Origin: Caedibacter taeniospiralis
GTDB lineage: Bacteria; Pseudomonadota; Gammaproteobacteria; Francisellales; Francisellaceae
Reading direction: 5' to 3'
DNA: 32,000 nt
NCBI RefSeq assembly: GCF_002803295.2
Contig: NZ_PGGB02000005.1
Location: 30,059-62,058, forward strand
In this document: piece after piece, positions 2,021-20,085 of the stretch
Numbering within the stretch: the stretch's first letter is position 1
Layout: each line of letters opens with the position of its first letter
Made by a program: the position numbers and the translations under genes
Notes under the pieces: generated by a model
Databases searched by the model: none
What the model saw: only the letters and a program-made list of their open reading frames with translations
Told to the model about the DNA's origin: nothing

Positions 2021-2214
2021 TGAGTTAGATACTTTTGCTGAACTACCCCGCCTCGCAGACCTGACCACTTTAAAGTGGTCAGGCAGGCTCGGCACCCCTT
2101 CACAAGTAAAGGGGAATTTTCGATAGCTTGTTGCTAGATTCCCCTTCGTTAGCGAAGGGGTGGACGCGAAGCGGACGGGGTAGTCTTAAAATCAGCAAAA
2201 GTACGTAACTCCAG
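2021..2214 (+). repeat. MITE-like modular repeat, copy A (short form, End-1 to End-2 orientation), between ackA and pta
   Basis: The terminal inverted repeats are tgagttagatACTTTTGCTGaACTACCCCGcc on the left and ggaCGGGGTAGTcttaaaatCAGCAAAAGTacgtaactccag on the right. Internal hairpins are GACCTGACCAC-N5-GTGGTCAGGC, CCCCTTCAC..AAGGGG and CCCCTTCGTTAGCGAAGGGG. The same architecture recurs at five other sites. Confidence 0.85.
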
Positions 2215-3390
2215 TTATTTATTTAATAATTCATGGCAGCTTTGAGCGATCATCAGCTCCTCATCAGTTGGTAGAACCATAATGCGTTTGCTGCCTGGTT
2301 TGTGAATTTCGATATACTGCTTTGCATTACTATTACGCGTATCATCGATCATAAAGCTGAGAGCTTCAAGCTTATCAATCACTTTCTGGCGCACCATAGC
2401 GCTATGTTCACCGATGCCTGCGGTAAATATCAGTCCATCAAAATGTGCAAAGTACATCATATAACTTGCGATATACTGGGCAATACGATGGCTAAATATC
2501 TCCAGAGCTAAAATGGCTTTGGCATTATTCTGGCTGATGGCGTGTTCAATATCACGCATATCACTTAAGCCGCATATTCCCAAAAGACCGCTTTGTTTGT
2601 TTAATAGCTGATTGATTTGGTCAATGTCCATATCTATGGTTTGTTTAAGATAGCCAAAAACGCCAGGGTCAATAGCACCAGAGCGCGTGCCCATAACCAG
2701 GCCGTCAAGCGGGGTAAACCCCATGCTGGTGTCAATGCTTTTGCCCTCTTTAATTGCAGTGATACTGCAGCCATTGCCCAAATGAGCACAGATGAAATTA
2801 CCCTGAGCAAGTCTAAGATAATGTGCTGCAGTTTGTGCTATGTACTGGTGACTAATGCCATGAAAGCCGTATTTTCTAAGCTTAAGCTCCTCATAAAGGT
2901 TTTGCGGAATAGCATAGCGGTATATGTGCTCAGGTATGCTTTGATGAAAAGCCGTATCAAATACGGCAACCTGTTGGATATTACCAAAATGCTGATTACA
3001 AAATTCAATTCCCTGAAGATTGGCAGGGTTATGTAAAGGTGCCAGTGGAATCAGGGCGCGAATCTTATCAAGAACATCCTGATCAATCATTACAGCTTTA
3101 TTGAAATAGTGCCCTCCATGAACCACGCGGTGACCAATGCAGCTGATACATTCAAGAAACTGGTGTTCCTTTAGTGTTGCAATAATCAGTAGAAAGGCAG
3201 ATTGATAACTTAATTTCACATGAGCCTGCTGTTGTTTGGCATTGATCTTAAAAGAAAAATTGCCACCAGACTGGTTAATTTTATCCGCTATGCCAGATAA
3301 AGTGGCTGTGGTTTTCCCACGTTCGAATACAGCGAACTTAATTGATGAACTGCCACAGTTAAAAACCAGATAATATGTGCCACAAGCCAT
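2215..3390 (-). CDS. ackA: Acetate kinase
   Basis: The ORF track gives 2215..3468, which is a TTG-extended call. The first ATG at 3390 gives MACGTYYLVFNCGSSSIKFAVF, the acetate-kinase N-terminal signature. Further blocks are GFHGISHQY, AHLGNGCS and FTAGIGE. It lies directly upstream of pta. Confidence 0.93.
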   Translation of the reverse strand: MACGTYYLVFNCGSSSIKFAVFERGKTTATLSGIADKINQSGGNFSFKINAKQQQAHVKLSYQSAFLLIIATLKEHQFLECISCIGHRVVHGGHYFNKAVMIDQDVLDKIRALIPLAPLHNPANLQGIEFCNQHFGNIQQVAVFDTAFHQSIPEHIYRYAIPQNLYEELKLRKYGFHGISHQYIAQTAAHYLRLAQGNFICAHLGNGCSITAIKEGKSIDTSMGFTPLDGLVMGTRSGAIDPGVFGYLKQTIDMDIDQINQLLNKQSGLLGICGLSDMRDIEHAISQNNAKAILALEIFSHRIAQYIASYMMYFAHFDGLIFTAGIGEHSAMVRQKVIDKLEALSFMIDDTRNSNAKQYIEIHKPGSKRIMVLPTDEELMIAQSCHELLNK

Positions 3391-3577
3391 GAAAGACAAA
3401 AACTCAAAACGGATACGGGCTGTCAATATAGCGCTGGAATTAGTCGTTTGGAAAGTCAAAGTGAACAAAAACTTGAGCTATGTCATAAAGTACAAAAATA
3501 AAGCTGCTTCATATTAGCTTCTTATAATGGGCAGTGGTACGCTTATCAGCATAAAGCAGCCTGGGCATCGATTTAAA

Positions 3578-3934
3578 ATGCACGAATTTTCGTTATGTCA
3601 GCGTGTTATTGGCATTGTGTTAAACAAAGTACGAGAAATGGATCAGGATGCAAAAAAGCTTAGCGCCATTACGCTCTGCATTGGGCAATTGGCAGGTGTT
3701 GATGTCGAATCGATGCAGTTTTGGTTTCCTGTGGCAGCAAAAAACACCTCTCTTTCTGGCGTAGGCTTAAAAATACTGATTGAGTCTGCGCGTGCGCGCT
3801 GTGTGACGTGTAATAACGAGTATGAAGTGGCGCAGTTTTATGCGGCATGCCCACAGTGCCAAAGCTACGAAAAAGATATAATCTGTGGTCAGGAAATGTT
3901 GGTTGATCATATTGAATTTGAAATGAAAAAATAA
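3578..3934 (+). CDS. hypA: Hydrogenase nickel-incorporation protein HypA
   Basis: The ATG at 3578 gives MHEFSLCQ, the canonical HypA MHE Ni-binding N-terminus. Two CxxC pairs (CVTCNNEY...CPQCQS) form the Zn site. The product is 118 aa. The ORF-track start at 3527 is an upstream extension. Confidence 0.9.
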   Translation: MHEFSLCQRVIGIVLNKVREMDQDAKKLSAITLCIGQLAGVDVESMQFWFPVAAKNTSLSGVGLKILIESARARCVTCNNEYEVAQFYAACPQCQSYEKDIICGQEMLVDHIEFEMKK

Positions 3935-3950
3935 TCGGTTAAAGGAGTGA

Positions 3951-4035
3951 GTAGGGTGGATAAGCGTAGCGCATCCACGCGGGGAGGCAGATTGGCTGCG
4001 TGTTGGTGGATGCGCGTTTGGCTTATCCACCCTAC
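3951..4035. repeat. Inverted pair of REP elements (BIME-like) in the hypA-hypB spacer
   Basis: GTAGGGTGGATAAGCGTAGCGCATCCAC (3951-3978) faces its inverted copy GTGGATGCGCGTTTGGCTTATCCACCCTAC (4006-4035). Each unit is a GTAG head followed by an imperfect palindrome (GGTGGAT..ATCCAC). Confidence 0.75.
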
Positions 4036-4101
4036 TACTAAAAAGAGATGGGCGAAGACATTGTGACTGCCTGAGTTTGAAGTGAAGTAATAGGAGTAAA
4101 T

Positions 4102-4845
4102 ATGTGTACCACATGTGGTTGCCAGGCTGATATGCTCCATAAGCACGATCAGCACTATCATCATCACCACACACATGAGCATGAAGTTAATCGTGTGAAG
4201 TTAGAAGAAGCTATTTTAGCGACGAATGATCAATATGCTAAAGCCAATCGTGAATATCTTAAACGCAGGAATGCGATCGCGTTTAACTTTGTTTCAAGTC
4301 CTGGTTCAGGTAAAACTTCGTTATTGGAGAAAACAATCGCCAGGCTTAAAGGCGAATATCCCATTGTGGTAGTCGAGGGAGATCAACAGACCGAGATTGA
4401 TGCAGCGCGCATTCGTAAGGCGGGGGCTCACGCTTATCAGATCAACACAGGCAAAGCATGTCACCTGGATGCGCATATGGTCGGTCATGCGTATGAACAC
4501 TTACAGATCCACAATGATAGCCTCGTCTTTATTGAAAACGTCGGTAACCTGATATGTCCTGCGATGTTTGATTTAGGGGAGAAGCATCGTGTTGCTATGA
4601 TTTCAGTCACTGAAGGGGATGACAAGCCGTTGAAATATCCAGACATGTTTTATCACGCCGATACCGTTGTGATCAATAAAGTTGATCTTTTGCCCTATGT
4701 TGACTTTGATGTCGCGCGTTGTATCAATAACCTGCGTAAAATTCGCTCGGACATCCGCATTTTTACGCTGTCGGTGAAAACTGAAGAAGGTTTAGGTGAC
4801 TGGTGTGCGTGGCTAAAATCGCTTTTAGCAGCAAAAGCACAATAA
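4102..4845 (+). CDS. hypB: Hydrogenase maturation GTPase/nickel metallochaperone HypB
   Basis: N-terminal MCTTCGC (CxxCGC Ni site), His-rich run HKHDQHYHHHHTHEHE, P-loop SSPGSGKTSLL and the NKVDL motif. SD GGAG lies upstream. Confidence 0.93.
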   Translation: MCTTCGCQADMLHKHDQHYHHHHTHEHEVNRVKLEEAILATNDQYAKANREYLKRRNAIAFNFVSSPGSGKTSLLEKTIARLKGEYPIVVVEGDQQTEIDAARIRKAGAHAYQINTGKACHLDAHMVGHAYEHLQIHNDSLVFIENVGNLICPAMFDLGEKHRVAMISVTEGDDKPLKYPDMFYHADTVVINKVDLLPYVDFDVARCINNLRKIRSDIRIFTLSVKTEEGLGDWCAWLKSLLAAKAQ

Positions 4846-5107
4846 CTAAGTGGAGTTATGTACTTTTGCTGATTTTTAAGACTACCCCGTCAGCCTCACG
4901 CGCAGAGCTTGTGGCGTTCAAAGCTGAAGAAGCAAAACTGTTTACTTCTTTCGGGCGCTTTTCACCCCCTTCGCTAACGAAGGGGAATCTGACGACAAGC
5001 TATCGAAAATTCCCCTTCACTGGTGAAGGGGTGCCGAGTCTGCCTGACCACTCTGGAGTGGTCAGGTTTGCGAGGCGGGGTAGTGCAGCAAAAGCATCGA
5101 ATTCCAG
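4846..5107 (-). repeat. MITE-like modular repeat, copy C (long form with the extra about 85-nt module M)
   Basis: The left end is ctaagtggagttatgtACTTTTGCTGatttttaagACTACCCCGtcagc. The right end is gcgaggCGGGGTAGTgCAGCAAAAGcatcgaattccag. It contains module M (cagcctcacgcgcagagcttgtggcgttcaaagctgaagaagcaaaactgttt...) plus hairpins H3, H2 and H1. It starts immediately after the hypB TAA. Confidence 0.85.
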
Positions 5108-5120
5108 TGATTAAATTTGT

Positions 5121-5184
5121 CACCCCTTCTAAAAGAAGAGCGCGAAAGACTACACAAAGGAACGTTCTTCTTTTAGAAGGGGTG
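5121..5184. repeat. Perfect 19-bp inverted repeat (long hairpin) just upstream of hypF
   Basis: CACCCCTTCTAAAAGAAGA (5121-5139) and TCTTCTTTTAGAAGGGGTG (5166-5184) are exact reverse complements separated by a 26-nt loop. The stem shares the CACCCCTTC core with the H2/H3 hairpins of the MITE-like family. Confidence 0.8.
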
Positions 5185-5210
5185 GCACAACTTCAGCAAG
5201 CTTAGGTGAT

Positions 5211-7544
5211 ATGATGCAAAGCGCAGTAAAAATCATAGTAACTGGGATAGTCCAAGGTGTGGGCTTTAGACCATTTATCTATCGTTTGGCAGCACAGTTT
5301 CATTTATCAGGAAGCGTACAAAACACGCCTTTGGGTGCTGAGATTATTCTATTTTCAAGCCCTGAAATAGCCAGGGATTTTATTGATGTGATGTGTGGTC
5401 AATTGCCGCCATTGGCTAAAATTAAATCATTGGCATGGGTTGAAGTTAAGTGCTTATCCAGTGATCAAACATTCAAAATTCTTCCGAGTGTCCCTGGAGA
5501 AAGTGCAACTGAAATTCCTGCGGATACAGCAATTTGTGTGGCATGTATCGCAGAGATATTTTCGCCAGATAGTCGTTATTATCTTTATCCTTTTACAAGC
5601 TGCACCTCTTGCGGTCCACGTTTTAGCGTGATTACATCCTTACCCTATGACAGGGACGCCACGACGTTTGTCGATTTTCCCTTGTGTGATGCCTGTTTAG
5701 CGGTTTATCAGAATCCTCTGAATCGACGCTATCATGCGCAAACGACCGTGTGTGAAAAGTGTGGTCCAGTTTTCTCAAATACTTTTAAAGCGATGTTACA
5801 GGTTTTACAAAATGGAAAAGTCTTGGCACTTAAAAGCCATAATGGTTTTAGACTCATTGTGAACGCTAAGAATAAAGCGGCAGTTGGGTTATTGCGTGAG
5901 CGTAAAAAAAGACCATATAAACCCTTTGCACTCATGGCATTGAATAGTGCGAGCATTAAGCAATATGTGGAGCTTAATGCCAAAGAAGAAGCGCTTTTAA
6001 ATACAAATGCGCGTCCCATTGTGCTTTTGAACAAAAAACAAAACCATTTACTGCCCGATGCCGTAGCCCCTGGCTTAAACGAGCTTGGATTGATGTTGCC
6101 CGCAACCGGGCTTGATTATTTGCTCTTTTATTACTTGTTAAACGAACCAAAAGGCTTAGATTGGCTGGAAGCTCCTAATGATTGGCTTCTTGTGGTGACC
6201 AGTGCCAATTTTTCAGGAGGCAGCATTATTGCAGATAATGAACAAGCCAGGGAAAAACTCCATAACATCGCCGATTTAATCGTCACCGATAACCGAAAAA
6301 TTGCCATGCAAAGCGATGATAGTGTGATGCGCGTGGTGGCGGGTAAAGAAATGATGATTCGCCGATCTCGTGGTTTTGCACCCCTGTCCATCGAGCTTCC
6401 AGAGCCATTGCCAAATGTATTGGCGACAGGCGCTTTGCTTAAAAACACGTTTTGTTTTATCGGGAATAAAAAAGCCTATTTATCGCAATATATAGGGGAT
6501 ATGGATAGTGCTGAGAGTATCGCGTATTTCAACAAGGCGTTTGTCCATTATCAACGTTTATTTGGGGTGAGCTTTGATGCCCTTGCGTGTGATTTTCACC
6601 CTGATTTATACACCACGCATTTTGCCGAGGACTTTCAATTGCCGCTTTATCAAATCCAGCATCATGAAGCGCATGCTGGAGCAGTTATTGCTGAGCATAA
6701 CTTAAAGGGCGAGGCTTTAGCGCTTATCCTTGATGGTTTTGGTTTAGGTGAAGATGGTGTGGCTCGAGGGGGCGAACTCTATTATTGCGATATGGATCGA
6801 TTGGATTTTGTCCGTTGTGGTGAGCTTGTGCCAATGTGGTATCTGGGTGGAGACAGGGTTCAAAAAGAGCCTTGGAGAATGGCACTTGCCTTGTGTGTAC
6901 AGTTGAAATTGCCTGTGCCTCTGTATCTACTTAAAGATAAACATGCAAAAGATTTATTGACTTTATTGCGTAAGAATCAGGCTGAGATTCCAGTCACAAC
7001 CAGTATGGGGCGTTTGTTTGATGCAGTTTCAAGTCTTATTAATGTTTGTCATTACAATAGCTATGAAGCTGAGGCTGCCATGAAGTTTGAAGCTTTAGCC
7101 AAAGATCCGCAATGCGATGAAAGCCTGTTTGACATTAACAATGGGCAATTAGACTTATCAGCACTGATAGCCTGTATTATCGCGATGCCAGCAAACAGGG
7201 CGAGTGACCTGTTTCATGGAACGCTAGCGTATGCCTTAGCTTTTTGGGTCAATCATGTTGCAAAAGAAAAAGACGTAAAGAAGATTATCTTAAGTGGTGG
7301 CTGTTTTCAAAATAAGATTTTATTAACATGGATACTGAAGTATTTGGCAGCATTTGGTTTAGAAAGTTTTATCCCAGAGCAAATCCCTGCTAATGATGGA
7401 GGTATTAGTTTTGGGCAAGCGTGGATTGCTGCCAGGAAGCTGGAGCTACACACTTTTGCTGTACTACCCCGCCTCGCAGACCTGACCACTCCAGAGTGGT
7501 CAGGCAGGCTCGGCACCCCTTCACAAGTGAAGGGGAATGTTTGA
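5211..7544 (+). CDS. hypF: Carbamoyltransferase HypF (hydrogenase maturation)
   Basis: Acylphosphatase-like N-terminus (VTGIVQGVGFRPFIYRLA). Two Zn-finger pairs (CVAC..CTSCGPRF and CDAC..CEKCGPVF). YrdC-like middle region. Kae1-like C-terminal region ending PANDGGISFGQAWIAA. The last 34 codons and the stop lie inside repeat copy D. Confidence 0.92.
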   Translation: MMQSAVKIIVTGIVQGVGFRPFIYRLAAQFHLSGSVQNTPLGAEIILFSSPEIARDFIDVMCGQLPPLAKIKSLAWVEVKCLSSDQTFKILPSVPGESATEIPADTAICVACIAEIFSPDSRYYLYPFTSCTSCGPRFSVITSLPYDRDATTFVDFPLCDACLAVYQNPLNRRYHAQTTVCEKCGPVFSNTFKAMLQVLQNGKVLALKSHNGFRLIVNAKNKAAVGLLRERKKRPYKPFALMALNSASIKQYVELNAKEEALLNTNARPIVLLNKKQNHLLPDAVAPGLNELGLMLPATGLDYLLFYYLLNEPKGLDWLEAPNDWLLVVTSANFSGGSIIADNEQAREKLHNIADLIVTDNRKIAMQSDDSVMRVVAGKEMMIRRSRGFAPLSIELPEPLPNVLATGALLKNTFCFIGNKKAYLSQYIGDMDSAESIAYFNKAFVHYQRLFGVSFDALACDFHPDLYTTHFAEDFQLPLYQIQHHEAHAGAVIAEHNLKGEALALILDGFGLGEDGVARGGELYYCDMDRLDFVRCGELVPMWYLGGDRVQKEPWRMALALCVQLKLPVPLYLLKDKHAKDLLTLLRKNQAEIPVTTSMGRLFDAVSSLINVCHYNSYEAEAAMKFEALAKDPQCDESLFDINNGQLDLSALIACIIAMPANRASDLFHGTLAYALAFWVNHVAKEKDVKKIILSGGCFQNKILLTWILKYLAAFGLESFIPEQIPANDGGISFGQAWIAARKLELHTFAVLPRLADLTTPEWSGRLGTPSQVKGNV

Positions 7545-7717
7545 AAAGTATATCCCCTAATTCCCCTTCGTTAGCCAAGGGGGCGAAAAGCGCCTTAAAG
7601 GAAGCAAACAGTTTTGCTTCCTTAGCTTTGAGCGCTGTAAGCTCCGCGCGCAGCTGGAGGACAATGCGAAGCGGACGGGGTAGTCTTTAAAATCAGCAAA
7701 AGTTCAATTACAAACAG
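7440..7717 (+). repeat. MITE-like modular repeat, copy D (long form), overlapping the hypF 3' end
   Basis: The left end is ctggagctacacACTTTTGCTGtACTACCCCGcctcgcag, followed by H1, H2, H3 and a diverged module M. The right end is gcggaCGGGGTAGTctttaaaatCAGCAAAAGTtcaatt, and its outer part is degenerate. Confidence 0.85.
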
Positions 7718-7729
7718 AGGAATAAAAGC

Positions 7730-7963
7730 ATGTGTTTAGCTATTCCAGCGCAGATTATAGCGTTTAATGAGGGCAAGCAAGCGCTTGTTAATATAGGTGG
7801 AGTGCGTAAAGAGATTTCACTGGCGCTATTAAAAGAAGACGTGAATATCGACGATTATGTCATCGTTCATGTCGGTTTTGCCTTAAGTAAACTAGATGAA
7901 GCAAAGGCAAGGCAAACCTTGGCAGATTTTGCAACCATGCTGCAAGCTAAGGAGGAAAAATGA
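7730..7963 (+). CDS. hypC: Hydrogenase assembly chaperone HypC/HupF
   Basis: MCLAIPAQI N-terminus (essential Cys2), 77 aa. SD GAGGA lies upstream. Its stop overlaps the hypD start (ATGA). Confidence 0.92.
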   Translation: MCLAIPAQIIAFNEGKQALVNIGGVRKEISLALLKEDVNIDDYVIVHVGFALSKLDEAKARQTLADFATMLQAKEEK

Positions 7964-9066
7964 ATTATATCGAAGTTTTTCGTGATCCTAAGGTCGCAAA
8001 AAAACTGATTACTGAAATAAATAGAGTAGCTCGAAGTGATCGAAACTATCACCTTATGGAGTTTTGTGGTGGGCATACCCATGCCATTTATCGCTATGGT
8101 ATTACGGGGCTTTTGCCAAAAAACGTCAAAATGATTCATGGTCCAGGTTGTCCTGTGTGTGTCTTGCCAGTGGCACGAGTCGATCAGGCAATTTATCTGG
8201 CTGCTCAAAAAGAGGTAATATTTTGCAGCTATGCCGATATGTTACGCGTTCCTGGCACAAACCAGGATAGCCTACTTAAAGCAAAAGCCCGAGGTGCCGA
8301 TGTGCGTATGGTGTATTCAAGTGAAGATGCGTTAAAGCTTGCGACAATGAATCCAGAGAAAAGAGTGATTTTCTTTGCCATTGGATTTGAAACAACCACT
8401 CCCCCGACAGCAGTTGCACTGGATCAGGCTGTTAAACTCGGGTTAAAGAATTTTTATGTCTTTTGCAATCACGTGCTAACACCGATTGCCATGGAGGCTA
8501 TTTTATCCGATGAAGTTAAAATTGACGGTTTTGTTGGTCCCTCGCATGTCAGCATCATTATAGGCAGTAACGCCTACCACGATGTAGCAACGCGCTTTCA
8601 CAAACCTGTGGTGATCGCAGGGTTTGAACCTTTGGATGTATTACAATCCATTTTAATGTTGATACAGATGATTAATAACAACGAGGTTGGCGTTAAAAAC
8701 CAGTATACTCGAGCGGTAACCCAGAAAGGTAATACCCTGGCACAAGCGCTCATTGGCAAATATTTGGAGTTGCGCGATACGTTTGAATGGCGTGGCTTAG
8801 GTTTTATTCCCCAAAGTGCCCTAAAAATTAAAGCACAATATGCGTCATTTGATGCCGAAGTGGTTTTTGATATTCCAAAGATTAAAGGTGAGGAGCATAA
8901 ATCCTGCGCATGTCCTGATATTTTGCGTGGCGTTAAAGAGCCTAGAGACTGCAAATTGTTTGGTGTGGCATGTACTCCTGAACAGCCGATGGGGGCGTGT
9001 ATGGTATCCTCAGAAGGTGCTTGTGCGGCGCACTATCAATACCAATCGCAAGGAGAACGTGCATGA
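7960..9066 (+). CDS. hypD: Hydrogenase formation protein HypD
   Basis: Motifs EFCGGHTHAI, HGPGCPVCV and GFETTTPP, plus a C-terminal Cys cluster (CACPDILRG..C..C..C). Confidence 0.93.
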   Translation: MNYIEVFRDPKVAKKLITEINRVARSDRNYHLMEFCGGHTHAIYRYGITGLLPKNVKMIHGPGCPVCVLPVARVDQAIYLAAQKEVIFCSYADMLRVPGTNQDSLLKAKARGADVRMVYSSEDALKLATMNPEKRVIFFAIGFETTTPPTAVALDQAVKLGLKNFYVFCNHVLTPIAMEAILSDEVKIDGFVGPSHVSIIIGSNAYHDVATRFHKPVVIAGFEPLDVLQSILMLIQMINNNEVGVKNQYTRAVTQKGNTLAQALIGKYLELRDTFEWRGLGFIPQSALKIKAQYASFDAEVVFDIPKIKGEEHKSCACPDILRGVKEPRDCKLFGVACTPEQPMGACMVSSEGACAAHYQYQSQGERA

Positions 9067-10088
9067 GTGTTAAACTTAACTTTAATCACGGCGTTGTCGA
9101 TCTTTCAATGGGCGCAGGTGGCAAAGCGATGAATCGCCTGATTGACCAGCTGATGAAAAAAGCGTTTACCAATGAATACCTGTTGCAGGGAGAAGATCAG
9201 GCAGTTTTGCCGCATATTGATGGCAGAATAGCTATGACCACCGATAGTTACGTGATTACGCCTTACTTCTTTCCTGGAGGTGATATTGGCAGCTTAGCTA
9301 TCTGTGGCACGGTAAATGATCTGGCAGTGGGCGGTGCCACTCCTCGCTATCTTTCCGTTGGCTTTATTTTAGAGGAGGGCCTTGCGTTGAGTGATTTAAA
9401 ACAAATCGTGTATTCGATGGCAGATACCGCGGCAAAAGCCGATGTGATGCTGGTGGCAGGAGACACCAAAGTCGTCGAAAAAGGCAAGGGCGATGGTATT
9501 TTCATTAACACCACAGGCATTGGCGTTGTCAGGGAAAACTTTGTGACAAGAGAGGTCTTGACGGTAGGGGATTGCATTATCATCAATGGCGCTATCGCCG
9601 AGCATGGTGTGGCAGTGATGTCAAAGCGTGTGGGATTAAGCTTTGATTGTGACGTCAAAAGTGACGTTGCTCCCTTAAATGGCTTGATTGATCAGCTTTA
9701 TCAATCAGGATGCAGGCTTAAAACCATGCGCGATCCAACACGCGGTGGTGTTGCTGCAACCTTAAACGAATGGGCTAAGCAGTACCAGGTGGGGATTGAA
9801 ATTGATGAAAGTGCTTTAGTTATCGGTGAAGAGGTTCAATCTGCGTGTGAGTTGTTAGGGCTTGATCCTTTATTTATTGCCAATGAAGGAAAGGTGTTGA
9901 TCGTTTGTGAGGCTCCAGAAGCCCAGAAAGTTTTAGCTTGTCTGACGCAAGATGAGTCAGGTAAAAATGCGAGCATAATTGCAACAGTGAAAAAGGAAGG
10001 TGAGGCTTATGTCAATATGCAAACCACTTTTGGCGGTGTTCGTCGAGTGGATTGGTTAAGTGGCGAACAATTACCCCGAATTTGTTAA
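9063..10088 (+). CDS. hypE: Hydrogenase expression/formation protein HypE
   Basis: The ATG at 9063 overlaps the hypD stop (ATGA). The ORF-track start at 8997 is an in-frame extension inside hypD. It carries the MRDPTRGG motif and the C-terminal PRIC motif. Confidence 0.92.
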   Translation: MSVKLNFNHGVVDLSMGAGGKAMNRLIDQLMKKAFTNEYLLQGEDQAVLPHIDGRIAMTTDSYVITPYFFPGGDIGSLAICGTVNDLAVGGATPRYLSVGFILEEGLALSDLKQIVYSMADTAAKADVMLVAGDTKVVEKGKGDGIFINTTGIGVVRENFVTREVLTVGDCIIINGAIAEHGVAVMSKRVGLSFDCDVKSDVAPLNGLIDQLYQSGCRLKTMRDPTRGGVAATLNEWAKQYQVGIEIDESALVIGEEVQSACELLGLDPLFIANEGKVLIVCEAPEAQKVLACLTQDESGKNASIIATVKKEGEAYVNMQTTFGGVRRVDWLSGEQLPRIC

Positions 10089-10094
10089 AAATAA

Positions 10095-10285
10095 CTGGAG
10101 ATATAAACTTTTTAAAAACTACCCCGTCAGCCTCACGCGCAGAGCTTGTGGCGTTCAAAGCTAAAGAAGCAAAACTGTTTGCTTCTTTCGGGCGCTTTTC
10201 ACCCCCTTCACTTGTGAAGGGGAATTAAGCCCGTCAGCTTTGCTGCCTGCGAGGCGGGGTAGTTAGGTAAAACCACGTACCTCAA
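10095..10285 (-). repeat. MITE-like modular repeat, copy E (degenerate ends; module M plus H2 only)
   Basis: The left end is ctggagatataaACTTTTtaaaaACTACCCCGtcagc, followed by module M (near-identical to copy C) and CCCCTTCACTTGTGAAGGGG. The right end is gcgaggCGGGGTAGTtaggtaaaaccacgtacctcaac. It fills almost the whole hypE to hydrogenase spacer. Confidence 0.75.
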
Positions 10286-10298
10286 CATAGGAGGAAAA

Positions 10299-12253: not shown

Positions 12254-12254
12254 G

Positions 12255-13076
12255 ATGTCGTCTGTAGCCAAATTAAAAAGCTTAAAAAAACTGCCAAATA
12301 AGCCAACATTAGCCGTTCACAAATTTAGTTCGTGTGATGGCTGCCAGCTTGCGTTTATCAATGACGGTGTAAGACTTCTTAAACTTTCTACACTCGTCGA
12401 TATTAAACATTTCGCCGAAGCAGGTCCTGTGGAGGAGGATTGTAAAGTCGATGTTGCGATTATTGAGGGGAGTATTAACACAAAGCATGACGCTCGTCGG
12501 ATAGAGAAAATTCGCCAAAACAGCAAATACTTAATTGCCATGGGGGCATGTGCGACAACTGGAGGTATTCAAGGCTTAAGAAATAACATCAATCGTCAGC
12601 AATTTGAAGACTGGATGAAAGATGTATATCCACAGCATACTGATGTGATTGATCAAATGGAGCTAGACACCGCGAAGTCGATTGGAGACTATGTTGAGGT
12701 TGATTTTGAAATAAGAGGCTGTCCCGTCAGTTCTGATCAAGTGTATCACGCAGTGCGCCAATTGCTGTTTAAAGTAGAACCTGAAAAAATTGCAGATCCC
12801 GTGTGTACCTCCTGTAAACACCGAGGCATCACCTGTGTCATGGTGGCTTTTAATGAACCTTGTCTGGGTCCTGTTACGGCAAACGGATGTGATGCACTCT
12901 GTCCACATATTAACCGTGGCTGTTACGGATGTTATGGCGCATCAAGCTATGCCAATTTTGATGCAATGACTGAAAAATTAAAATCAATGGGATTAAGTGA
13001 GAAAGAAATCGCGCGCAAGTATCATTTTATTAATAATCAGCAAAAAGGTTTCAAAGAAGCAGGAGATAAGGCATGA
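12255..13076 (+). CDS. [NiFe]-hydrogenase small (delta) subunit, NuoB-like
   Basis: Motifs SSCDGCQ, GACATTGGIQ and RGCP, plus a C-terminal Cys-rich region (CTSC..C..C..C..C..C). SD AAGGGGG lies upstream. Confidence 0.82.
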   Translation: MSSVAKLKSLKKLPNKPTLAVHKFSSCDGCQLAFINDGVRLLKLSTLVDIKHFAEAGPVEEDCKVDVAIIEGSINTKHDARRIEKIRQNSKYLIAMGACATTGGIQGLRNNINRQQFEDWMKDVYPQHTDVIDQMELDTAKSIGDYVEVDFEIRGCPVSSDQVYHAVRQLLFKVEPEKIADPVCTSCKHRGITCVMVAFNEPCLGPVTANGCDALCPHINRGCYGCYGASSYANFDAMTEKLKSMGLSEKEIARKYHFINNQQKGFKEAGDKA

Positions 13077-14380
13077 GTGATAATGTGAAAACAACCAGAA
13101 TAGAAGTCCCTATTTTGGCTCGTGTTGAGGGAGAAGGCGCGCTCGATTTAGAAATTACTGATCATAAGATTACCAGGTGTCACGTGCGTATCTATGAACC
13201 GCCTCGCTATTTTGAGAAGTTCTTAGAGGGGCGTGAACCCAATGAGATTATCGATGCCGTGGCACGCATTTGTGGTATTTGTCCCATGGCGTATCAGATG
13301 AGTGTGGTAACCTTAATGGAGAAAGCCTTTGGCGTTACCGTCACCCCTTGGGTGCATCAGATGCGTCGGGTAATGTATTTAGGCGAGTGGATTGAATCCC
13401 ATTATTTACATACTCATATTTTGGCAGCGCCTGACTTTTTGAAATATCATTCAGCTATTGAAATGGCGAAAGATTTTCCCACTGAAGTCAAGCGTGGGGT
13501 GAAGTTGCAGCATTTGGGCAATGATATTCTATCCCTTTTTGGGGGCAGATCGGTTCACCCTGGCGCAATTAAAGTCGGAGGTTTTTATCGTGCGCCAAAA
13601 CCCAAGGAAATTAAGTCATTGATTCCGCGTTTACAAGAGGCATTAAACGATGCCAAAGAGGTGGTGATGTGGTTTGCCAAGCTGCCTTATCCTGATGTGT
13701 ATTTTGATGAGATTTTACAGGTTTCGCTCATGGATAAATCAGGGCAATATCCCGTGATTGCGGAACATGTGGTTACCAATAGAGGAGAGTGCTTCCCCAT
13801 TGAAGAATGGGATCACTATTTTTATGAGTTTCATGCGCCACAATCGACAGCCCTACATTCAACGTGTGATGGTAAACCTTATATCACAACCCCTTTAACA
13901 CGACTTAATTTAAACTTTGATAAGCTGCCAAAAAACGTGAGGGATCTGGCAAACAGCACGGGAATTTTATTCCCAAGTAATAATATTTTCCATAGCATTT
14001 TGGCGCGATCGATTGAGTGCTATTATGCGTTTGGTGAGATCTTACGCATCCTGGAAAACTATGAATATTCTGATAAGCCTTATGTTGATGTGAGCTTTAA
14101 AGCAGGTAAAGCCTGGGGTGCAACAGAAGCCCCTCGCGGTATTCAGATTGATTACTTTGAGTTTGATGATAAAGGGCTTGCGACAAAAATTCGCATCACG
14201 CCACCAACGGCGCAGAATCTCGCGTGTATGGAGGCGGACCTTAAGCAGTCATTGACAAAGTTTGGTTTAGATAAATCAGATGATGAATTAAGGCAGCACG
14301 CGGAAATGGTGATCCGTAATTATGATCCATGTATTTCCTGCTCAGCGCACTTTTTAACTTTAAACCTTAAACGACATTAA
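13073..14380 (+). CDS. [NiFe]-hydrogenase large (alpha) subunit, group 3-type
   Basis: N-terminal ligand motif RICGICP (RxCGxC) and C-terminal DPCISCSAH (DPCxxCxxH), followed by a 9-aa extension FLTLNLKRH. The product is 435 aa. Its start overlaps the small-subunit stop (ATGA). Confidence 0.92.
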   Translation: MSDNVKTTRIEVPILARVEGEGALDLEITDHKITRCHVRIYEPPRYFEKFLEGREPNEIIDAVARICGICPMAYQMSVVTLMEKAFGVTVTPWVHQMRRVMYLGEWIESHYLHTHILAAPDFLKYHSAIEMAKDFPTEVKRGVKLQHLGNDILSLFGGRSVHPGAIKVGGFYRAPKPKEIKSLIPRLQEALNDAKEVVMWFAKLPYPDVYFDEILQVSLMDKSGQYPVIAEHVVTNRGECFPIEEWDHYFYEFHAPQSTALHSTCDGKPYITTPLTRLNLNFDKLPKNVRDLANSTGILFPSNNIFHSILARSIECYYAFGEILRILENYEYSDKPYVDVSFKAGKAWGATEAPRGIQIDYFEFDDKGLATKIRITPPTAQNLACMEADLKQSLTKFGLDKSDDELRQHAEMVIRNYDPCISCSAHFLTLNLKRH

Positions 14381-14382
14381 AA

Positions 14383-14410
14383 CTGGGGTAGTCCAGCAAA
14401 AGTGTGGAAC
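14383..14410 (-). repeat. Remnant (about 28 bp) of the MITE-like repeat, copy F
   Basis: ctGGGGTAGTcCAGCAAAAGTgtggaac matches the End-1 terminus (GGGGTAGT-N-CAGCAAAAGT). It begins 2 nt after the large-subunit TAA. Confidence 0.6.
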
Positions 14411-14431
14411 GAAAGTAAGGAGGAAATATCA

Positions 14432-15361
14432 ATGTATCAAAAGTTTTTTCGTCATTTTATCGCTATAAGCCTGATCGTATGGACAATTTTTGCGCTACTT
14501 TTTTACCAGCATTTAAATCTGTTAGCCATCGTATTTATTGCTTTTATGCTGGGACTTCGCCATGGCTTTGATGTTGATCATATCGTTGCCATTGATAATG
14601 TAACAAGGCAACTTGCAGCAAGCGGTAAACCAAGTGTCACCACGGGATTGTTTTTTGCCTTGGGTCATTCAAGTATTGTATTTTTATTGACTCTATTGGT
14701 GATTTTGGGCGTAAGTCTCACTAAAGCGGAAGATTTAGGAATCATAGGCATAGGTGCAATGATTGGCAGCATCGTGTCGATCGTATTTTTGTGGCTGACA
14801 GGGGGCATGAATCTTATCTCACTGTATCGCTTAGTGAAATATCAGCAAAACAAACATGCCCACTCGCCCTTAACACGTTGGTTTAAGCCACTTTTTACGC
14901 TCGTTGATAAGCCTTATAAGATGTATCCTGTGGGCTTTTTGTTTGGACTTGGATTTGACACTGCGACTGAAATTGCTCTTTTGGGACTTGCGGCCACAGC
15001 ATCATTAAGTGGAGAGTCTATCTGGCTTATTCTCTCATTACCAATTGCATTTGCACTGGGCATGACCTGGGTTGATTCCTTAGATGCGCTGTTGATGACG
15101 AGACTCATTAGTAGTCAAAACGTCAATGATCAGCTGTTTAGGCGTTATAATATTGCAATATTATTGATTGTGATTACAGCGTCCTTCGCGGTGGGGCTGA
15201 TTCAACTACTTGGGCTGATCGAACGTGACATAGAAGGTGTTGTTAGCTTTATCGGGGATCATTCACCATGGTTTGGCGCAGGTCTTGTGCTTATCATGCT
15301 GGTTGTATTTGTCAGCATGATTTTGAAAAAAAGGGTACTGATGAACCGTCAAAAAATTTAA
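14432..15361 (+). CDS. hoxN: Nickel/cobalt permease, NiCoT family (HoxN/HupN/NixA)
   Basis: NiCoT signatures LRHGFDVDHIVAIDN (HX4DH), LGHSSIVF and GLGFDTATEIALL, with multiple hydrophobic spans. The ATG at 14432 is preceded by AAGGAGG. The ORF-track GTG at 14402 is an extension. Confidence 0.88.
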   Translation: MYQKFFRHFIAISLIVWTIFALLFYQHLNLLAIVFIAFMLGLRHGFDVDHIVAIDNVTRQLAASGKPSVTTGLFFALGHSSIVFLLTLLVILGVSLTKAEDLGIIGIGAMIGSIVSIVFLWLTGGMNLISLYRLVKYQQNKHAHSPLTRWFKPLFTLVDKPYKMYPVGFLFGLGFDTATEIALLGLAATASLSGESIWLILSLPIAFALGMTWVDSLDALLMTRLISSQNVNDQLFRRYNIAILLIVITASFAVGLIQLLGLIERDIEGVVSFIGDHSPWFGAGLVLIMLVVFVSMILKKRVLMNRQKI

Positions 15362-15409
15362 CGCCAAAATTCAAACAATACCATATCCACCCTGTATGCT
15401 GAGCAAAGG

Positions 15410-15700
15410 CTAAATAAACGCAGCATATGCTTCTGCATGCTTCACAGGGGAAAAACTGTGATAACTATAGGTAGCAACATTTTCCACTAAAAAGGGATCT
15501 TCCTGAAGTAAAGCTTTGATTACATCCAACTCACCTGAGGCTAAAATAACACCACCATTGCGTGCACTATTGGGACCTGATGCAATAAATAGCCCTTGGG
15601 CGTACCCGCGATCAAGAAACTCGCGATGTTTAGGTCGAATCAGATCAATCATTTCTGAGCTTGCGGTGTAGCTGATAGTAATAATATGCGTTGGTTTCAT
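15410..15700 (-). CDS. YciI-like family protein
   Basis: 96 aa. The pattern RPKHREFL..G..IASGP..GGVILA..LLQEDPF...Y..H.F.P matches the YciI-like small alpha/beta family as I remember the E. coli YciI layout. Confidence 0.65.
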   Translation of the reverse strand: MKPTHIITISYTASSEMIDLIRPKHREFLDRGYAQGLFIASGPNSARNGGVILASGELDVIKALLQEDPFLVENVATYSYHSFSPVKHAEAYAAFI

Positions 15701-15833
15701 TCGTTTGCCTTGTACTAAGTGGTTGTGAGGCTAATTTTGTCATAGCTTACAGGCTGTTTGTACTTTTTTTTCAAGATTTTCCTGCGTAGAATGGACTCAG
15801 CAATTTTGCGAAACTGTGGTGAAGATAACATTC

Positions 15834-17168
15834 ATGAAGTATTTTGATTTGAAAGCGCTAAAAAAAGATAAAATTTTCACTGAATCCCGTAAGCTTATGT
15901 CTTTTTCACTGTGGCGAAGGCGCTTACTTTTCTGGGGAGGTGCTATTTTAGTTGGGCTTATTTGTGTGTTATTTGCCTATCTTTGCGATAATTTGAATGA
16001 CAGCTTTAGCGAATTAAGCCAGAAGCATCCTCATTGGCCATTGTTCATTATGCCCATTGGCTTTATGGTCATCATATATTTGCTTAAAACCTACTTTGAT
16101 GGCGCTGAAGGCAGTGGGATACCACAGGTGATGGCTGCTTTGAAAGTCAAGAATATGCACAGGCGCAGCAAACTGGTTTCAATGCGTATTGCCCTAGGCA
16201 AATTTATGCTAACGGCTTTGGGTTTCTTAAGTGGTGCATCCATTGGGCGCGAGGGTCCTACCATTCAGCTAAGCGCCTCAGTCATGCACTTTTTAGGGCG
16301 CATGGAGAAGTTTAATCGCGAGGACACCGAAAAAGGTCTGCTCTTGGCAGGGGGGGCTGCAGGGATTGCCGCAGCTTTTAATGCACCGTTGGCGGGGGTG
16401 GTATTTGCAATTGAGGAATTAGCGGGCTCGTTTGATAAAGGCATTACAGGGACAATGATTACCACAGTAGTATTGTGCGGATTTGTGTCATTAGAGATTA
16501 TGGGAAATTATGCCTACTTTGGTGCAAGCTCTGCCACTTTAGATATTTTAGGTTGGGGTGGGTTTGTGTTAATTGTCGTTGCCATTGCGTGCGGATTTTT
16601 AGGGGGAGTATTCAGTCGTTTGTTATTGGTAATCTCTGCTGCGGTTGCCAGGATTATTGGCAAACACCCTGTGCTCTTTGCGGGTGGTATTGGTTTTGTG
16701 ATTGCTGTAATTGGTGTGCTTACCGGCGGGATTATTTATGGCAGTGGTAAAGAGACTGCTGTAGCACTGTTAAATGGGCATGAGGTGGAGGTTTCTGTTT
16801 TCTTTGGTTTATGGAAAATGATAGCAACCCTGCTATCGTTTATCAGTGGCATTCCAGGTGGGATCTTCGCCCCGTCGTTATCTGCAGGTGCGGGATTTGG
16901 TCATATGATGAGTTTTTTCTTTGAAGATCAATATGCCAGTGCGGTGGTTTTGGTTGGTACAGTTGCCTATTTTTCAGGCGTTGTTCAAAGTCCAATTACC
17001 TGCTTTATCATTGTGTCTGAAATGACCCAAAATGTCTCAACAGGCATGCTGCTACCCATTATGCTCGCGGCACTGTTAGGCACAGCAGCTTCAAGAGTGA
17101 TATGCAAAGAGCCCGTATATCATGCGTTGTCATTGCGTTACTTGGAGAAACTGCGCTCGAACAGTTAA
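15834..17168 (+). CDS. ClC-family voltage-gated chloride channel/Cl-:H+ antiporter
   Basis: ClC selectivity-filter motifs GSGIPQ, GREGPTIQ and GIFAPSL, and the protein is polytopic and hydrophobic. The start is uncertain: ATG 15834 versus GTG 15816 in the ORF track. Confidence 0.88.
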   Translation: MKYFDLKALKKDKIFTESRKLMSFSLWRRRLLFWGGAILVGLICVLFAYLCDNLNDSFSELSQKHPHWPLFIMPIGFMVIIYLLKTYFDGAEGSGIPQVMAALKVKNMHRRSKLVSMRIALGKFMLTALGFLSGASIGREGPTIQLSASVMHFLGRMEKFNREDTEKGLLLAGGAAGIAAAFNAPLAGVVFAIEELAGSFDKGITGTMITTVVLCGFVSLEIMGNYAYFGASSATLDILGWGGFVLIVVAIACGFLGGVFSRLLLVISAAVARIIGKHPVLFAGGIGFVIAVIGVLTGGIIYGSGKETAVALLNGHEVEVSVFFGLWKMIATLLSFISGIPGGIFAPSLSAGAGFGHMMSFFFEDQYASAVVLVGTVAYFSGVVQSPITCFIIVSEMTQNVSTGMLLPIMLAALLGTAASRVICKEPVYHALSLRYLEKLRSNS

Positions 17169-17297
17169 AAACCTGATTACGTCTGAAGCTTCTAAAACTT
17201 TCCATGCGCACTGAGAACTTGAGGCGTATGGGTGAGCTCAGAGTTTTTGGAATAAACCAGGGGCTGTGAGTACTAAAGTGCCACAATAAATTTTGGT

Positions 17298-17333
17298 TTT
17301 TAAAACAGATGAGCGCGTAGCACTGTTTTAAAA
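17298..17333. terminator. Possible bidirectional terminator hairpin between convergent clc and dnaB
   Basis: TTTTAAAACAG-N14-CTGTTTTAAAA is a perfect 11-bp stem flanked by T/A runs on both sides. The stem is AT-rich, so the call is only moderate. Confidence 0.4.
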
Positions 17334-17406
17334 GCGTTAAAAAATTTGTGACCCTCACCTTGTCATATCGAAAGGGTACGTTTAAGCATGTCATAAAATA
17401 TACACT

Positions 17407-18807
17407 TTAATACACGCCTATTGGTACGCTTTGCTCGAAAGTTAAATCGGCAAAGCGGCAGAATCTTCCTTCAAAATGTACTTTGATACTGCCAATAGGA
17501 CCGTTACGCTGTTTGCCAATGATAATTTCACCTAAGCCTTTATTGTCTTCTTTATCTTTGTGATAAACCTCATCACGATAGACAAACATGATCACATCGG
17601 CATCCTGCTCAATTGCGCCAGATTCACGCAGATCAGACATCATTGGACGCTTATCCGCGCGATCATCCACGCCACGATTAAGCTGTGATAATGCAATAAC
17701 AGGCACGTGCAACTCTTTAGCCAGCGATTTCAGCGCGCGCGAAATTTCAGAAACCTCCTGTGTGCGGTTATTTTCATAACCTGGGACTTTCATCAGTTGC
17801 AAATAGTCGACTACAATCATGCTTAAACCATTGTGCTCTTTGTACAGTTTACGCGCTCTTGAGCGCATCTCAGATGGCGAAAGCCCAGCACTGTCATCAA
17901 TGTGCATGTTAAAATCTTTGGCTAAAACTTCCATCGCTGTCGTTATTTTCGCCCAATGCTCATCTTCCAAACGACCCTTTCTAAGGGCATTTTGCTCAAC
18001 ACGTCCCAAGGATGAAATCATTCTAAGGACAATATCTTCAGCAGGCATCTCAAGACTAAACACCAAAACGGGCTTATCAGCACCTCTTGCCACATTCTCT
18101 GCCAGGTTCATCGCAAAAGTGGTTTTTCCCATTGAAGGGCGCCCCGCAACAATGACGAGATTGGCAGGATGAAGCCCTGAGGTTAATTCATCCAAATCAG
18201 CAAAACCGCTGGGTGTTCCTGTAATGCCATCACTGGACTCCATCATTGCATCAATGCGATCAATGACGCTTGGGATAATATCACGAACTGCTCTTGGACC
18301 ATCACCTCTTTGGGTGTCCGTTTCCGCGATCGCTAAAATCTTTTGTTCTGCAACATCTAAAATATCTTCCGCTTTTCTGCCTTCTGGAACGTAAACCATA
18401 TTGGCAATATCCGTCGCTGTATTTAAGAGTACCCTTAACTTTGAACGCTCTTTGACAATCTCAGCATAGGCTACGACATTCGCCGCCGTTGGCGTATTTT
18501 TGGCAATCTCTGCTAAATAATGCAATCCGCCTGCCTGCTCCAATAGCTTTTCATTAGATAATGAATCACTCAATGTAATAATATCAAAGGGAGATTCATC
18601 TTGGATAAGCTTCTGCATTTGCCTAAAAATGATGCGATGTTGAGAACTATAAAAATCTTCGGGTTTAAGAATTTCTTCGATTTTAAACCATGCTTCATTA
18701 TCCAATATAAGCCCACCAATAACTGACCGCTCAGCATCAATTGAAGAGGGTGGGCGTTTAATGCTTTCAAGCTGAGTATTTAAAGATATCACTTCATTTG
18801 GGTGCAT
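17407..18807 (-). CDS. dnaB: Replicative DNA helicase DnaB
   Basis: PPSSIDAERSVIGGLILDNEAW N-terminal domain, Walker A GRPSMGKTTFA, Walker B IVVDYLQLM, and the SQLNR and GKQRNGP blocks. The ATG is at 18807, with an alternative GTG at 18813. Normal length, no intein. Confidence 0.95.
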   Translation of the reverse strand: MHPNEVISLNTQLESIKRPPSSIDAERSVIGGLILDNEAWFKIEEILKPEDFYSSQHRIIFRQMQKLIQDESPFDIITLSDSLSNEKLLEQAGGLHYLAEIAKNTPTAANVVAYAEIVKERSKLRVLLNTATDIANMVYVPEGRKAEDILDVAEQKILAIAETDTQRGDGPRAVRDIIPSVIDRIDAMMESSDGITGTPSGFADLDELTSGLHPANLVIVAGRPSMGKTTFAMNLAENVARGADKPVLVFSLEMPAEDIVLRMISSLGRVEQNALRKGRLEDEHWAKITTAMEVLAKDFNMHIDDSAGLSPSEMRSRARKLYKEHNGLSMIVVDYLQLMKVPGYENNRTQEVSEISRALKSLAKELHVPVIALSQLNRGVDDRADKRPMMSDLRESGAIEQDADVIMFVYRDEVYHKDKEDNKGLGEIIIGKQRNGPIGSIKVHFEGRFCRFADLTFEQSVPIGVY

Positions 18808-18818
18808 AATCACGCCTG

Positions 18819-19868
18819 TTACTTATCTTGCTGCAGCAAAGTATCTACCTTTTTGTCTGTTTGCGCTGTGGCATTTTCCATCTCATCAACTTCTTCCCAT
18901 GGCGCCTTATCTTCTTTAGGATTAGATTTACCAGTGAGCTTTGTATTTTGCTCAGTTAGATCCAAACCTGCAGTGTCTTCCTTGGCAAAAACCTGCATAA
19001 GAAAATCAATAAACTCACGCAATGTCTCTGCCATGATAATGAAGTCAGCATCAAAGCGCTCTTGTTTGGTTTCGGAAACAATATCGTTGGCTTTGTCCTG
19101 CACCATTTCCAGGAACTTTACCGATTTAATCATAAACTCATCATTGATGATAAAACTCAGCTGATCCTGCCAGGATAATCCCAACTGGATCGTCTCACGA
19201 CCTGATTCTATTAATGACAAAATGTCATCGGTAAATAAATTCTGGCGCTGACAGCGAATAATTCCCGACGCATCTTTATCATCCTGCAAGATACATTGAT
19301 CCTCAATGGTAAGTGCTGCTGGATATTCATTGGTTTTAAGCCATTGCGTCAAGAGCATGGAAACAGGAAGCACCTCTGGAATGCGGATCTTCAAGCTCCC
19401 CAGGGCTTTGCGCAAATTCACGGTTAAAAGCTCGGCTTTCTTTGCTGAAGAAGCATTGACCACAAGCCAACCGTTTTGCGTATCGATATAAGCGTTTATC
19501 ACACTGTTACGAGTAAATGCGCGAGGTAAAAGCGTTTGATAAATTTCCTCTTTAAGCGTGTCTCTTTCTTTCTTTTTAACTGTGCGAGATTCCTGTAATT
19601 CAATCTCTGCCACTTTTTCATCCACAAGTTCTTTTATCACGCCAGCAGGCACTATTTTTTCCTGCACCTTAAATGCCATCAGCATAAAGCCACTAGCGGC
19701 ATGCACGATGGGCGCATTATTTCCCAAAGGAGATACCCAGCCCATAGATACAGGAGTGCTTGTTGAACAAGGAACAAAGGCGTGTTCATTTAAATATTTT
19801 TCCACTTCCTCAACCGTAAGGGTAAATTTTTCTGTCAATTGAAATAACGCTAAATTTTTAAACCACAT
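18819..19868 (-). CDS. rdgC: Recombination-associated protein RdgC (with a C-terminal extension)
   Basis: MWFKNLALFQL is the typical RdgC N-terminus. SD GAAGG lies upstream. The product is 349 aa. Its stop is 11 nt before the dnaB ATG. Confidence 0.85.
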   Translation of the reverse strand: MWFKNLALFQLTEKFTLTVEEVEKYLNEHAFVPCSTSTPVSMGWVSPLGNNAPIVHAASGFMLMAFKVQEKIVPAGVIKELVDEKVAEIELQESRTVKKKERDTLKEEIYQTLLPRAFTRNSVINAYIDTQNGWLVVNASSAKKAELLTVNLRKALGSLKIRIPEVLPVSMLLTQWLKTNEYPAALTIEDQCILQDDKDASGIIRCQRQNLFTDDILSLIESGRETIQLGLSWQDQLSFIINDEFMIKSVKFLEMVQDKANDIVSETKQERFDADFIIMAETLREFIDFLMQVFAKEDTAGLDLTEQNTKLTGKSNPKEDKAPWEEVDEMENATAQTDKKVDTLLQQDK

Positions 19869-19889
19869 TTTTTACCTTCTTAATTTTTA

Positions 19890-20085
19890 GAGGAGTTACG
19901 TACTTTTGCTGACCTTAAAGACTACCCCGTCTGCTTCGCAGCCACCCCTTCGCTAACGAAGGGGAATTAAGTAATAAACTTTCCGAAAATTCCCCTTCAC
20001 TTGTGAAGGGGTGCCTCGCGGTCTGACCACTCCAAAGTGGTCAGACCGCGAGGCGGGGTAGTGCAGCAAAAGTGTATCACTCCAG
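19890..20085 (-). repeat. MITE-like modular repeat, copy G (short form)
   Basis: The left end is gaggagttacgtACTTTTGCTGaccttaaagACTACCCCGtctgc, followed by H3, H2 and H1. The right end is gcgaggCGGGGTAGTgCAGCAAAAGTgtatcactccag, directly abutting the bamD stop (TTA at 20086-20088). Confidence 0.85.

Follow-up and report, generated by a model that had tools for sequence, protein, structure and literature searches.

A modular inverted-repeat family, very probably a miniature transposon, at the gene junctions of the hydrogenase cluster of Caedibacter taeniospiralis

Caedibacter taeniospiralis is a killer endosymbiont of Paramecium tetraurelia, with a genome of 1.32 Mb and a GC content of 41.3% (PMC5773718, PMC7297999). 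The stretch of its DNA analysed here, a window of 32,000 nt in which all coordinates are given unless a contig is named, carries pta and ackA on the minus strand and, on the plus strand, hypA, hypB, hypF, hypC, hypD, hypE, the genes of four NiFe hydrogenase subunits (domains Fer4_22, NAD_binding_1, Oxidored_q6 and NiFeSe_Hases) and nicO; a CLC channel gene, dnaB, rdgC, bamD, rluD and others follow. The four-subunit hydrogenase set resembles the group 3b type. Dispersed among these genes are five copies (A, B, C, D and F, named in window order) and one remnant (E) of a small, hairpin-rich, non-coding repeat. It is the nature of this repeat – in our view very probably a non-autonomous DNA transposon of the kind known as a miniature inverted-repeat transposable element (MITE) – that concerns us here.

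The basic unit is a foldback core of about 85 nt made of two bipartite terminal inverted repeats, each consisting of a 22-bp outer arm CTGGAGTTACGCACTTTTGCTG, a spacer, and a 9-bp inner core ACTACCCCG. The spacer is asymmetric – 1 nt at one end (End-1), 7-9 nt at the other (End-2) – and at the apex stand hairpin cassettes: H1, an inverted doublet H2/H3, and a module M of about 70-85 nt. Subfamilies range in size from 85 to 270 bp, individual copies from 83 to 269 bp. Alignment of copies A, B, C and F from End-1 to End-2 reveals a common order of End-1, H1, H2, spacer, H3, End-2, and so bears out both the two distinguishable ends and the three hairpins described in an earlier reading of this DNA (the original prediction). 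The copies in the window are as follows.

2021-2214, plus strand: copy A, short form (End-1, H1, H2, H3, End-2), between pta and ackA
4851-5107, minus strand: copy B, long form with module M1 at about 4897-4965, between hypB and hypF
7440-7708, plus strand: copy C, long form with variant module M2 at about 7583-7664, within the 3′ end of hypF, End-2 tip truncated
10095-10285, minus strand: copy D, degenerate arms, M1 at about 10134-10202 and a single H2, between hypE and the first hydrogenase subunit gene
14383-14410, minus strand: remnant E, 28 nt, a single End-1 arm, between the hydrogenase large-subunit gene and nicO
19892-20085, minus strand: copy F, short form, between rdgC and bamD

The repeat is present at all six of the locations originally named, on the evidence of repeat detection (long direct and inverted matches among 2022-2160, 4873-5107, 7440-7706, 10089-10294 and 19889-20093), of reading the sequence and of an arm profile. 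Three motifs are far more frequent in the window than expected: CTTTTGCTG-N1-9-ACTACCCCG (8 matches, 0 expected), ACTACCCCG itself (11 occurrences, 0.1 expected) and CCCCTTC-N6-GAAGGGG (9 matches, 0 expected). Run over the window with nhmmer, the arm profile recovered both arms of A, B, C, D and F and the single arm of E (E=5e-4), and matched nothing else, the last 12 kb included, which had been predicted to hold no copy. The elements have a GC content of 49-54%, against 42.6% for the window as a whole. The two predicted size classes also hold (191-194 bp and 257-269 bp), and both orientations do indeed occur, even within one operon. Three details needed revision. Module M, originally assigned to copies C, D and E, is instead the extra segment of the second to fourth copies – B, C and D, starting at 4851, 7440 and 10095 – the fifth being the 28-nt remnant; and copy C, correctly located, ends near 7708 and not at 7717, its End-2 tip being the truncated one. 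Copy D, finally, carries the module and is without H1 and without one of the H2/H3 pair. In three copies the tips stand close to stop codons: the End-2 tip of copy A abuts that of ackA, the tip region of copy B overlaps that of hypB (4843-4845), and the End-1 tip of copy F abuts that of bamD.

The family is not confined to the window. A metagenome scan returned 11 contigs with the repeat, all from assembly JACCDZ01; contigs of this assembly are 99.1-99.9% identical to the window, and proteins on the matching contigs fall in C. taeniospiralis clusters. They add about 16 copies and fragments, for a total of about 22 in roughly 135 kb of chromosome. Around 38 arms fit one profile, and the termini align as conserved ends across about 20 copies. 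Several architectures can be told apart.

Minimal form, 83-87 nt, the two ends alone: L082, L087
Ends and one H2 hairpin: L085, L089a
Ends and H2/H3, with or without H1
Symmetric form, H1 on both sides: L081b
Two End-2-type ends: L088, L083
With the M1 variant: B, D, L080, L081c, L086a
With the M2 variant: C, L086b

The M hairpin of L086b differs in sequence and has the same shape. Because each architecture recurs at unrelated loci, the subfamilies must each have been copied whole.

The neighbours of the dispersed copies are ordinary genes, ftsZ, nrdA, comEC and pepP among them. Nearly all copies lie within 50 nt (0-50) of a gene end, and the full copies are all outside conserved coding sequence, overlaps with gene ends excepted. 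Orientation relative to transcription is mixed (3 sense, 7 antisense). No reading frame is kept across the copies, and the longest open frame that runs through a copy, used as a protein query, found no match. Copies differ from one another by 5-25%, several have degenerate tips, and five (C, D, E, L081c and L083) are in decay. Outside the cluster there is roughly one copy per 20 kb, a figure that rests on one solo arm in the 19 kb between window position 20.1 kb and the end of L097, together with about four further copies on matching contigs that add up to about 96 kb. Set against this density, the six copies in 18 kb make the hyp/hydrogenase region a local hot spot, by a comparison made after the fact; extrapolation from the density outside the cluster suggests, as a rough estimate, that the genome may hold some tens of copies.

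Evidence that the copies arrived by transposition comes firstly from their flanks. For 14 copies the tip boundaries were set from the arm consensus, and the flanks were compared with a control in which flanks were cross-paired between elements. The flanking direct repeats reach a summed score of 23, whereas the control averages about -1.9 per pair (p=5e-5 by permutation). Exact repeats flank L082 (TGAATAA) and L086b (ACTTAA); those of L084, L087 and L089b contain one mismatch. Across copies the repeats are AT-rich and 6-8 bp long. The duplication measures 7 or 8 bp, depending on whether the tip base C is assigned to it or to the element.

A second line of evidence is provided by the same junctions in relatives. 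Gene order is unchanged in Fastidiosibacter lacustris and Cysteiniphilum sp. QT6929, and the junctions are tight: 4-33 nt, or a 38-nt overlap, in Fastidiosibacter, and 7-76 nt or overlapping in Cysteiniphilum, in every case except an occupied hypB-hypF junction. The individual comparisons are these.

hypB-hypF (copy B and an adjoining hairpin): 365 nt in C. taeniospiralis; 4 nt in Fastidiosibacter; 12 nt in a related metagenome-assembled genome; occupied in Cysteiniphilum
hypF-hypC (copy C): hypC starts 22 nt past the element; 38-nt overlap in both relatives
hypE-hydrogenase (copy D): 210 nt; 11 and 15 nt in the relatives
hydrogenase-nicO (remnant E): 21-52 nt; 10 and 7 nt in the relatives
pta-ackA (copy A): 212 nt; 22 and 9 nt in the relatives

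Since most of the same junctions in relatives measure 4-33 nt or overlap, the Caedibacter copies are insertions. One MITE family, together with a hairpin doublet of a different kind in one gap, fills most junctions of a conserved 11-gene operon, and the genes adjoining the copies are all intact.

Copy C has left a trace of its arrival. The HypF of the window is 100% identical to the C. taeniospiralis protein, and its closest relatives are those of Fastidiosibacter (65%) and Cysteiniphilum (63%). It departs from its homologues exactly at 7440, after residues AARK, and what follows belongs to the element.

7440-7544, plus strand: element-encoded replacement HypF C-terminus, 35 residues, LELHTFAVLPRLADLTTPEWSGRLGTPSQVKGNV, then stop
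7709-7770, plus strand: relic of the native hypF tail, LQTEE*KHVFSYSSADYSV, overlapping the hypC start at 7730

The native tail is still readable after copy C, its counterpart in Fastidiosibacter being YQKEKQNVFSNSCTSDCT. As judged from these reading frames, the insertion of copy C rewrote the C-terminus of HypF.

The family reaches beyond the C. taeniospiralis genome. The 3′ end of hypB in Cysteiniphilum QT6929 contains an element in which the outer arms, the core and an H2/H3 doublet can all be recognised (nhmmer E=5e-5 and 8e-3). Over aligned columns it shares about 80-90% identity with copies from Caedibacter, and TTAATAA is perfectly duplicated on its flanks; the tail of HypB in Cysteiniphilum is element-encoded. 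Its insertion point and that of copy B are 4-5 codons apart, which marks the two as independent events. In Cysteiniphilum sp. 6C5 a different, 255-nt palindromic dispersed repeat sits at the very same point of hypB (L099 2695-2949), so that this locus and L096 9762-9949 hold two different elements at an identical position, after TTTAATAA and before CTTTAGC; the 6C5 insert has no obvious duplication. In the related metagenome-assembled genome the hypB-hypF junction is empty. Three different hairpin elements have occupied the junction, by independent events in two genera, and the filling of one site by different elements indicates that this AT-rich, stop-codon-bearing sequence is a repeatedly hit hot spot. 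As to the 6C5 repeat itself, a further copy lies at L096 4791-4966.

Taken together – conserved termini, target-site duplications, junctions that are mostly empty in relatives, and the non-coding nature of the copies – these findings sustain the interpretation first offered for the repeats, that they are MITEs, and we hold it with considerable confidence. Every property of a MITE that could be tested was found, an identified parent element excepted. A transposase supplied in trans, presumably of the DDE type, would bind both ends; the element would enter AT-rich heptamers such as TTAATAA, with duplication of 7-8 bp. Heptamers of this kind occur mostly at stop codons and gene junctions in the compact C. 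taeniospiralis genome, and copies accumulate at gene ends for that reason. Insertions of this sort have split most junctions of the hyp-hydrogenase operon, tightly packed in relatives, together with the ackA-pta junction. The family is probably no longer active in C. taeniospiralis, given that copies differ by 5-25%, tips are degenerate and no partner transposase was seen.

Three observations weigh against this interpretation. About a third of the complete copies have poor flanking duplications; C. taeniospiralis strains show no presence/absence difference in the regions that could be compared; and an autonomous element with the same termini was not found in about 135 kb of chromosome, in the plasmid pKAP298, or in plasmid and viral collections. 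On the last point the searches were various. The genes of the window include no transposase, as had been predicted, and a self-comparison of about 128 kb revealed no long repeat resembling an insertion sequence (IS). Copy B had no BLAST match among 72,556 plasmids, and direct comparison with pKAP298, including its Tn3-family transposon and IS4502, showed no similarity. Scans of viral contigs gave chance matches or none, and a scan with the arm pattern of a genome collection in which the C. taeniospiralis genome was not within reach gave only single chance matches in unrelated taxa. The open reading frames (ORFs) beside solo arms proved in a Pfam scan to be housekeeping genes only.

Rfam 15 gave no match at the gathering score, so the family corresponds to no model catalogued there; a relaxed scan gave only generic hairpin matches to microRNA models at 5116-5190, outside the family. 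The consensus sequences of Correia, ERIC, RUP and BOX are not known to resemble that of the Caedibacter MITE. Searches of the literature with motif strings returned only primers and unrelated matches, and no description of the family was found in the searchable literature; neither of the two C. taeniospiralis genome papers mentions dispersed repeats, MITEs or the genes of the window (PMC5773718, PMC7297999). The family is thus apparently uncatalogued, while being an ordinary kind of mobile DNA and no new principle.

Among published family tables the best fit is to the IS4 subgroup ISPepr1, whose ends read YT-AA-YTT---A and which prefers AT-rich targets, with direct repeats of 7-8 bp (PMC2266710). 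The Caedibacter family agrees in the length and AT-richness of its duplication, and its arm, CTG(G/A)AGTTACGCA, fits 6-7 of the 8 conserved positions, in a consensus that is degenerate and in a likeness noticed after several families had been considered. Unlike ISPepr1, the MITE has neither an IS4-type transposase nor a full-length element in the DNA searched, and an ISPepr1-like enzyme as its mobiliser is only a lead. Two other candidates can be set aside. Parentage by the IS1016 group is ruled out: its AT-rich repeats of 7-9 bp are similar, but its ends, GGGGCTGTACTAGA, are unrelated (PMC12561309). A Tn3-like arrangement, with GGGGTAGT as an outward-facing end, is ruled out likewise; the target duplications mark CTGGAG as the true tip.

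The element folds very stably: its minimal form has stems of 21 and 8 bp, separated by an asymmetric bulge and closed by a small apex, at -52 kcal/mol (z=-9.6), and larger copies fold at -99 and -114 kcal/mol, with z-scores overall from -7 to -9.6. One suggestion is that the MITE has been co-opted as punctuation at the level of RNA – affecting processing, stability or decoupling – and retunes the dosage of hyp and hydrogenase genes in a reduced endosymbiont. The suggestion draws on the recolonised hypB-hypF junction, on hairpin pairing that has been kept, on operons that are translationally coupled in relatives and broken at most junctions in C. taeniospiralis, and on genes that are all intact; we regard it as improbable.

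Another reading also strikes us as improbable, namely that the repeats are first and foremost structured modules of RNA or DNA with a function (processing sites, stabilisers, attenuators or protein-binding sites), selected at operon junctions, with mobility accounting for their origin only. In its favour are the very stable folding, the intact neighbours, the junction colonised in two genera, and the facts that the pairing of the core and of H2/H3 has been kept through two-sided changes between Caedibacter and Cysteiniphilum, and that the M hairpin of L086b keeps its shape with a different sequence. The mirrored stem changes do not discriminate, however: they are also expected for inverted repeats recognised by one and the same transposase. 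Covariation as scored by RNAalifold is slightly unfavourable (+1.05), orientation shows no bias, both directions occurring within one operon, and several copies are decaying. No promoter-like site was found inside any copy, and the one terminator-like site, H2 followed by AATTTTC, is weak and present in forward orientation only. Nor is there a case for selection on the arms as a hairpin, arm complementarity within an element (17.4 of 22 positions) not being significantly above that between elements (16.9; p=0.06); what the arms resemble, on that account, is a single protein-binding consensus present twice.

The same result bears on a further alternative, to our minds more improbable still, in which the copies are repetitive extragenic palindromic (REP) sequences or REP doublets forming hairpins (REPINs), spread on single-stranded hairpins by a REP-associated tyrosine transposase (RAYT), the GTAG in GGGGTAGT being the REP signature. 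GTAG is indeed present in each core, the whole element folds to a very stable hairpin, and the genome holds true GTAG REP/REPIN repeats, at 3952-4027 and near 27700, separate GTAG REPs having been mentioned in the original prediction. The sequences of these true repeats are unrelated to the family, however, and the GTAG of the family has no palindrome of its own after it and is missing from the Cysteiniphilum relative (GGGGTGTT). Moreover, RAYT-type spread leaves no flanking duplications, whereas those found here are 7-8 bp long. Local duplication or gene conversion of intergenic sequence within the hyp cluster, for which only the excess of copies there could be cited, is effectively refuted by copies beside unrelated genes on many other contigs, with cluster copies no closer to one another than to distant ones; the target duplications and the occurrence in a second genus also speak against it.

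The Caedibacter MITE has counterparts among known elements. Correia elements of Neisseria, RUP of Streptococcus pneumoniae and Nezha of cyanobacteria are likewise small and non-coding, with terminal inverted repeats and target duplications; they too are dispersed, fold back on themselves, insert at gene ends and vary in size by internal insertion or deletion. Their sequences are unrelated, and the Caedibacter termini differ in being bipartite with an asymmetric spacer and in their 7-8 bp AT-rich duplication, where Correia and RUP duplicate TA. BOX of S. pneumoniae, the bacterial interspersed mosaic elements (BIMEs) of E. coli and long ERIC variants have conserved end modules around variable hairpin cassettes, in several size classes. 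The modular build of the Caedibacter MITE recalls these families; unlike them, it has true inverted-repeat ends and target duplications, and no single internal module in tandem. Rickettsia palindromic elements (RPEs) are also palindromic, mobile and multiplied in an obligate intracellular bacterium, and can enter coding sequence, a trait seen here in the element-encoded tails of HypF (Caedibacter) and HypB (Cysteiniphilum). RPEs typically lie in frame inside genes, whereas the Caedibacter MITE, unrelated in sequence, lies at gene ends and junctions. With REP/REPIN-RAYT systems the likeness is that of short, hairpin-forming intergenic repeats with GTAG; the differences are the target duplications and a GTAG that is not conserved in the Cysteiniphilum relative and has no palindrome of its own after it.

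Other repeats accompany the MITE, and the small non-coding repeat families of the window number at least three. An inverted doublet of the GTAG type that resembles a REPIN, GTAGGGTGGATAAGCG...CGCTTATCCACCCTAC, occurs at 3952-4027, in the hypA-hypB gap, and at L086 1908-1993; in the window it fills the sole hyp junction without a MITE, and its presence implies a RAYT-type system somewhere in the genome. A second REP type, GTAGGGGCGTATTGAATACGCCC, forms part of a dispersed repeat of about 90 nt that is 93% identical between loci:

27670-27760 in the window
L086 2018-2107 and 6240-6302
L081, near 6315

The hairpin that adjoins copy B, at 5118-5187, has a 22-bp stem, CACCCCTTCTAAAAGAAGAGCG...CGTTCTTCTTTTAGAAGGGGTG, and termini similar to the H2/H3 cassette; the 255-nt repeat of Cysteiniphilum sp. 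6C5 (L099 2695-2949) contains the same loop motif, GCGAAAGACTACA. A dispersed repeat of about 125 nt that forms yet another small family (L081 885-1008 and L086 6080-6203; 82% identity) has a hairpin of its own, GGATTCCCGCC...GGCGGGAATGAC. Tandem-like internal repeats of 68-85% identity occur at L081 12089-13001, inside a 1191-aa ORF without a Pfam match, and at L085 12059-12632. Within the window, a short imperfect repeat at 21943-22055, rich in GATGATGATTTTGA codons, encodes the acidic tail at the 3′ end of an rluD-like pseudouridine synthase gene. Two ORFs, 22108-23397 (429 aa) and 23876-26095 (739 aa), have no Pfam or NCBIfam match and may encode lineage-specific symbiont proteins.

The MITE family has consequences for the study of its host. 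Two independent Logan short-read assemblies yield contigs (L076 and L078) that end at the same base, 19944, inside copy F, where the repeated H3 hairpin begins: it is these repeats that fragment short-read assemblies of C. taeniospiralis. The insertions thus explain the assembly breaks, and they supply markers for strain typing. Since a related copy occurs in Cysteiniphilum, a genus of emerging human pathogens, the transposon lineage may be common to the Fastidiosibacteraceae. In C. taeniospiralis itself, an obligate endosymbiont with a genome of 1.3 Mb, the family illustrates clearly how mobile elements expand while a genome is being reduced. Its insertions also form a defined set, and their influence on the expression of the operon could be read from existing dual RNA-seq data.

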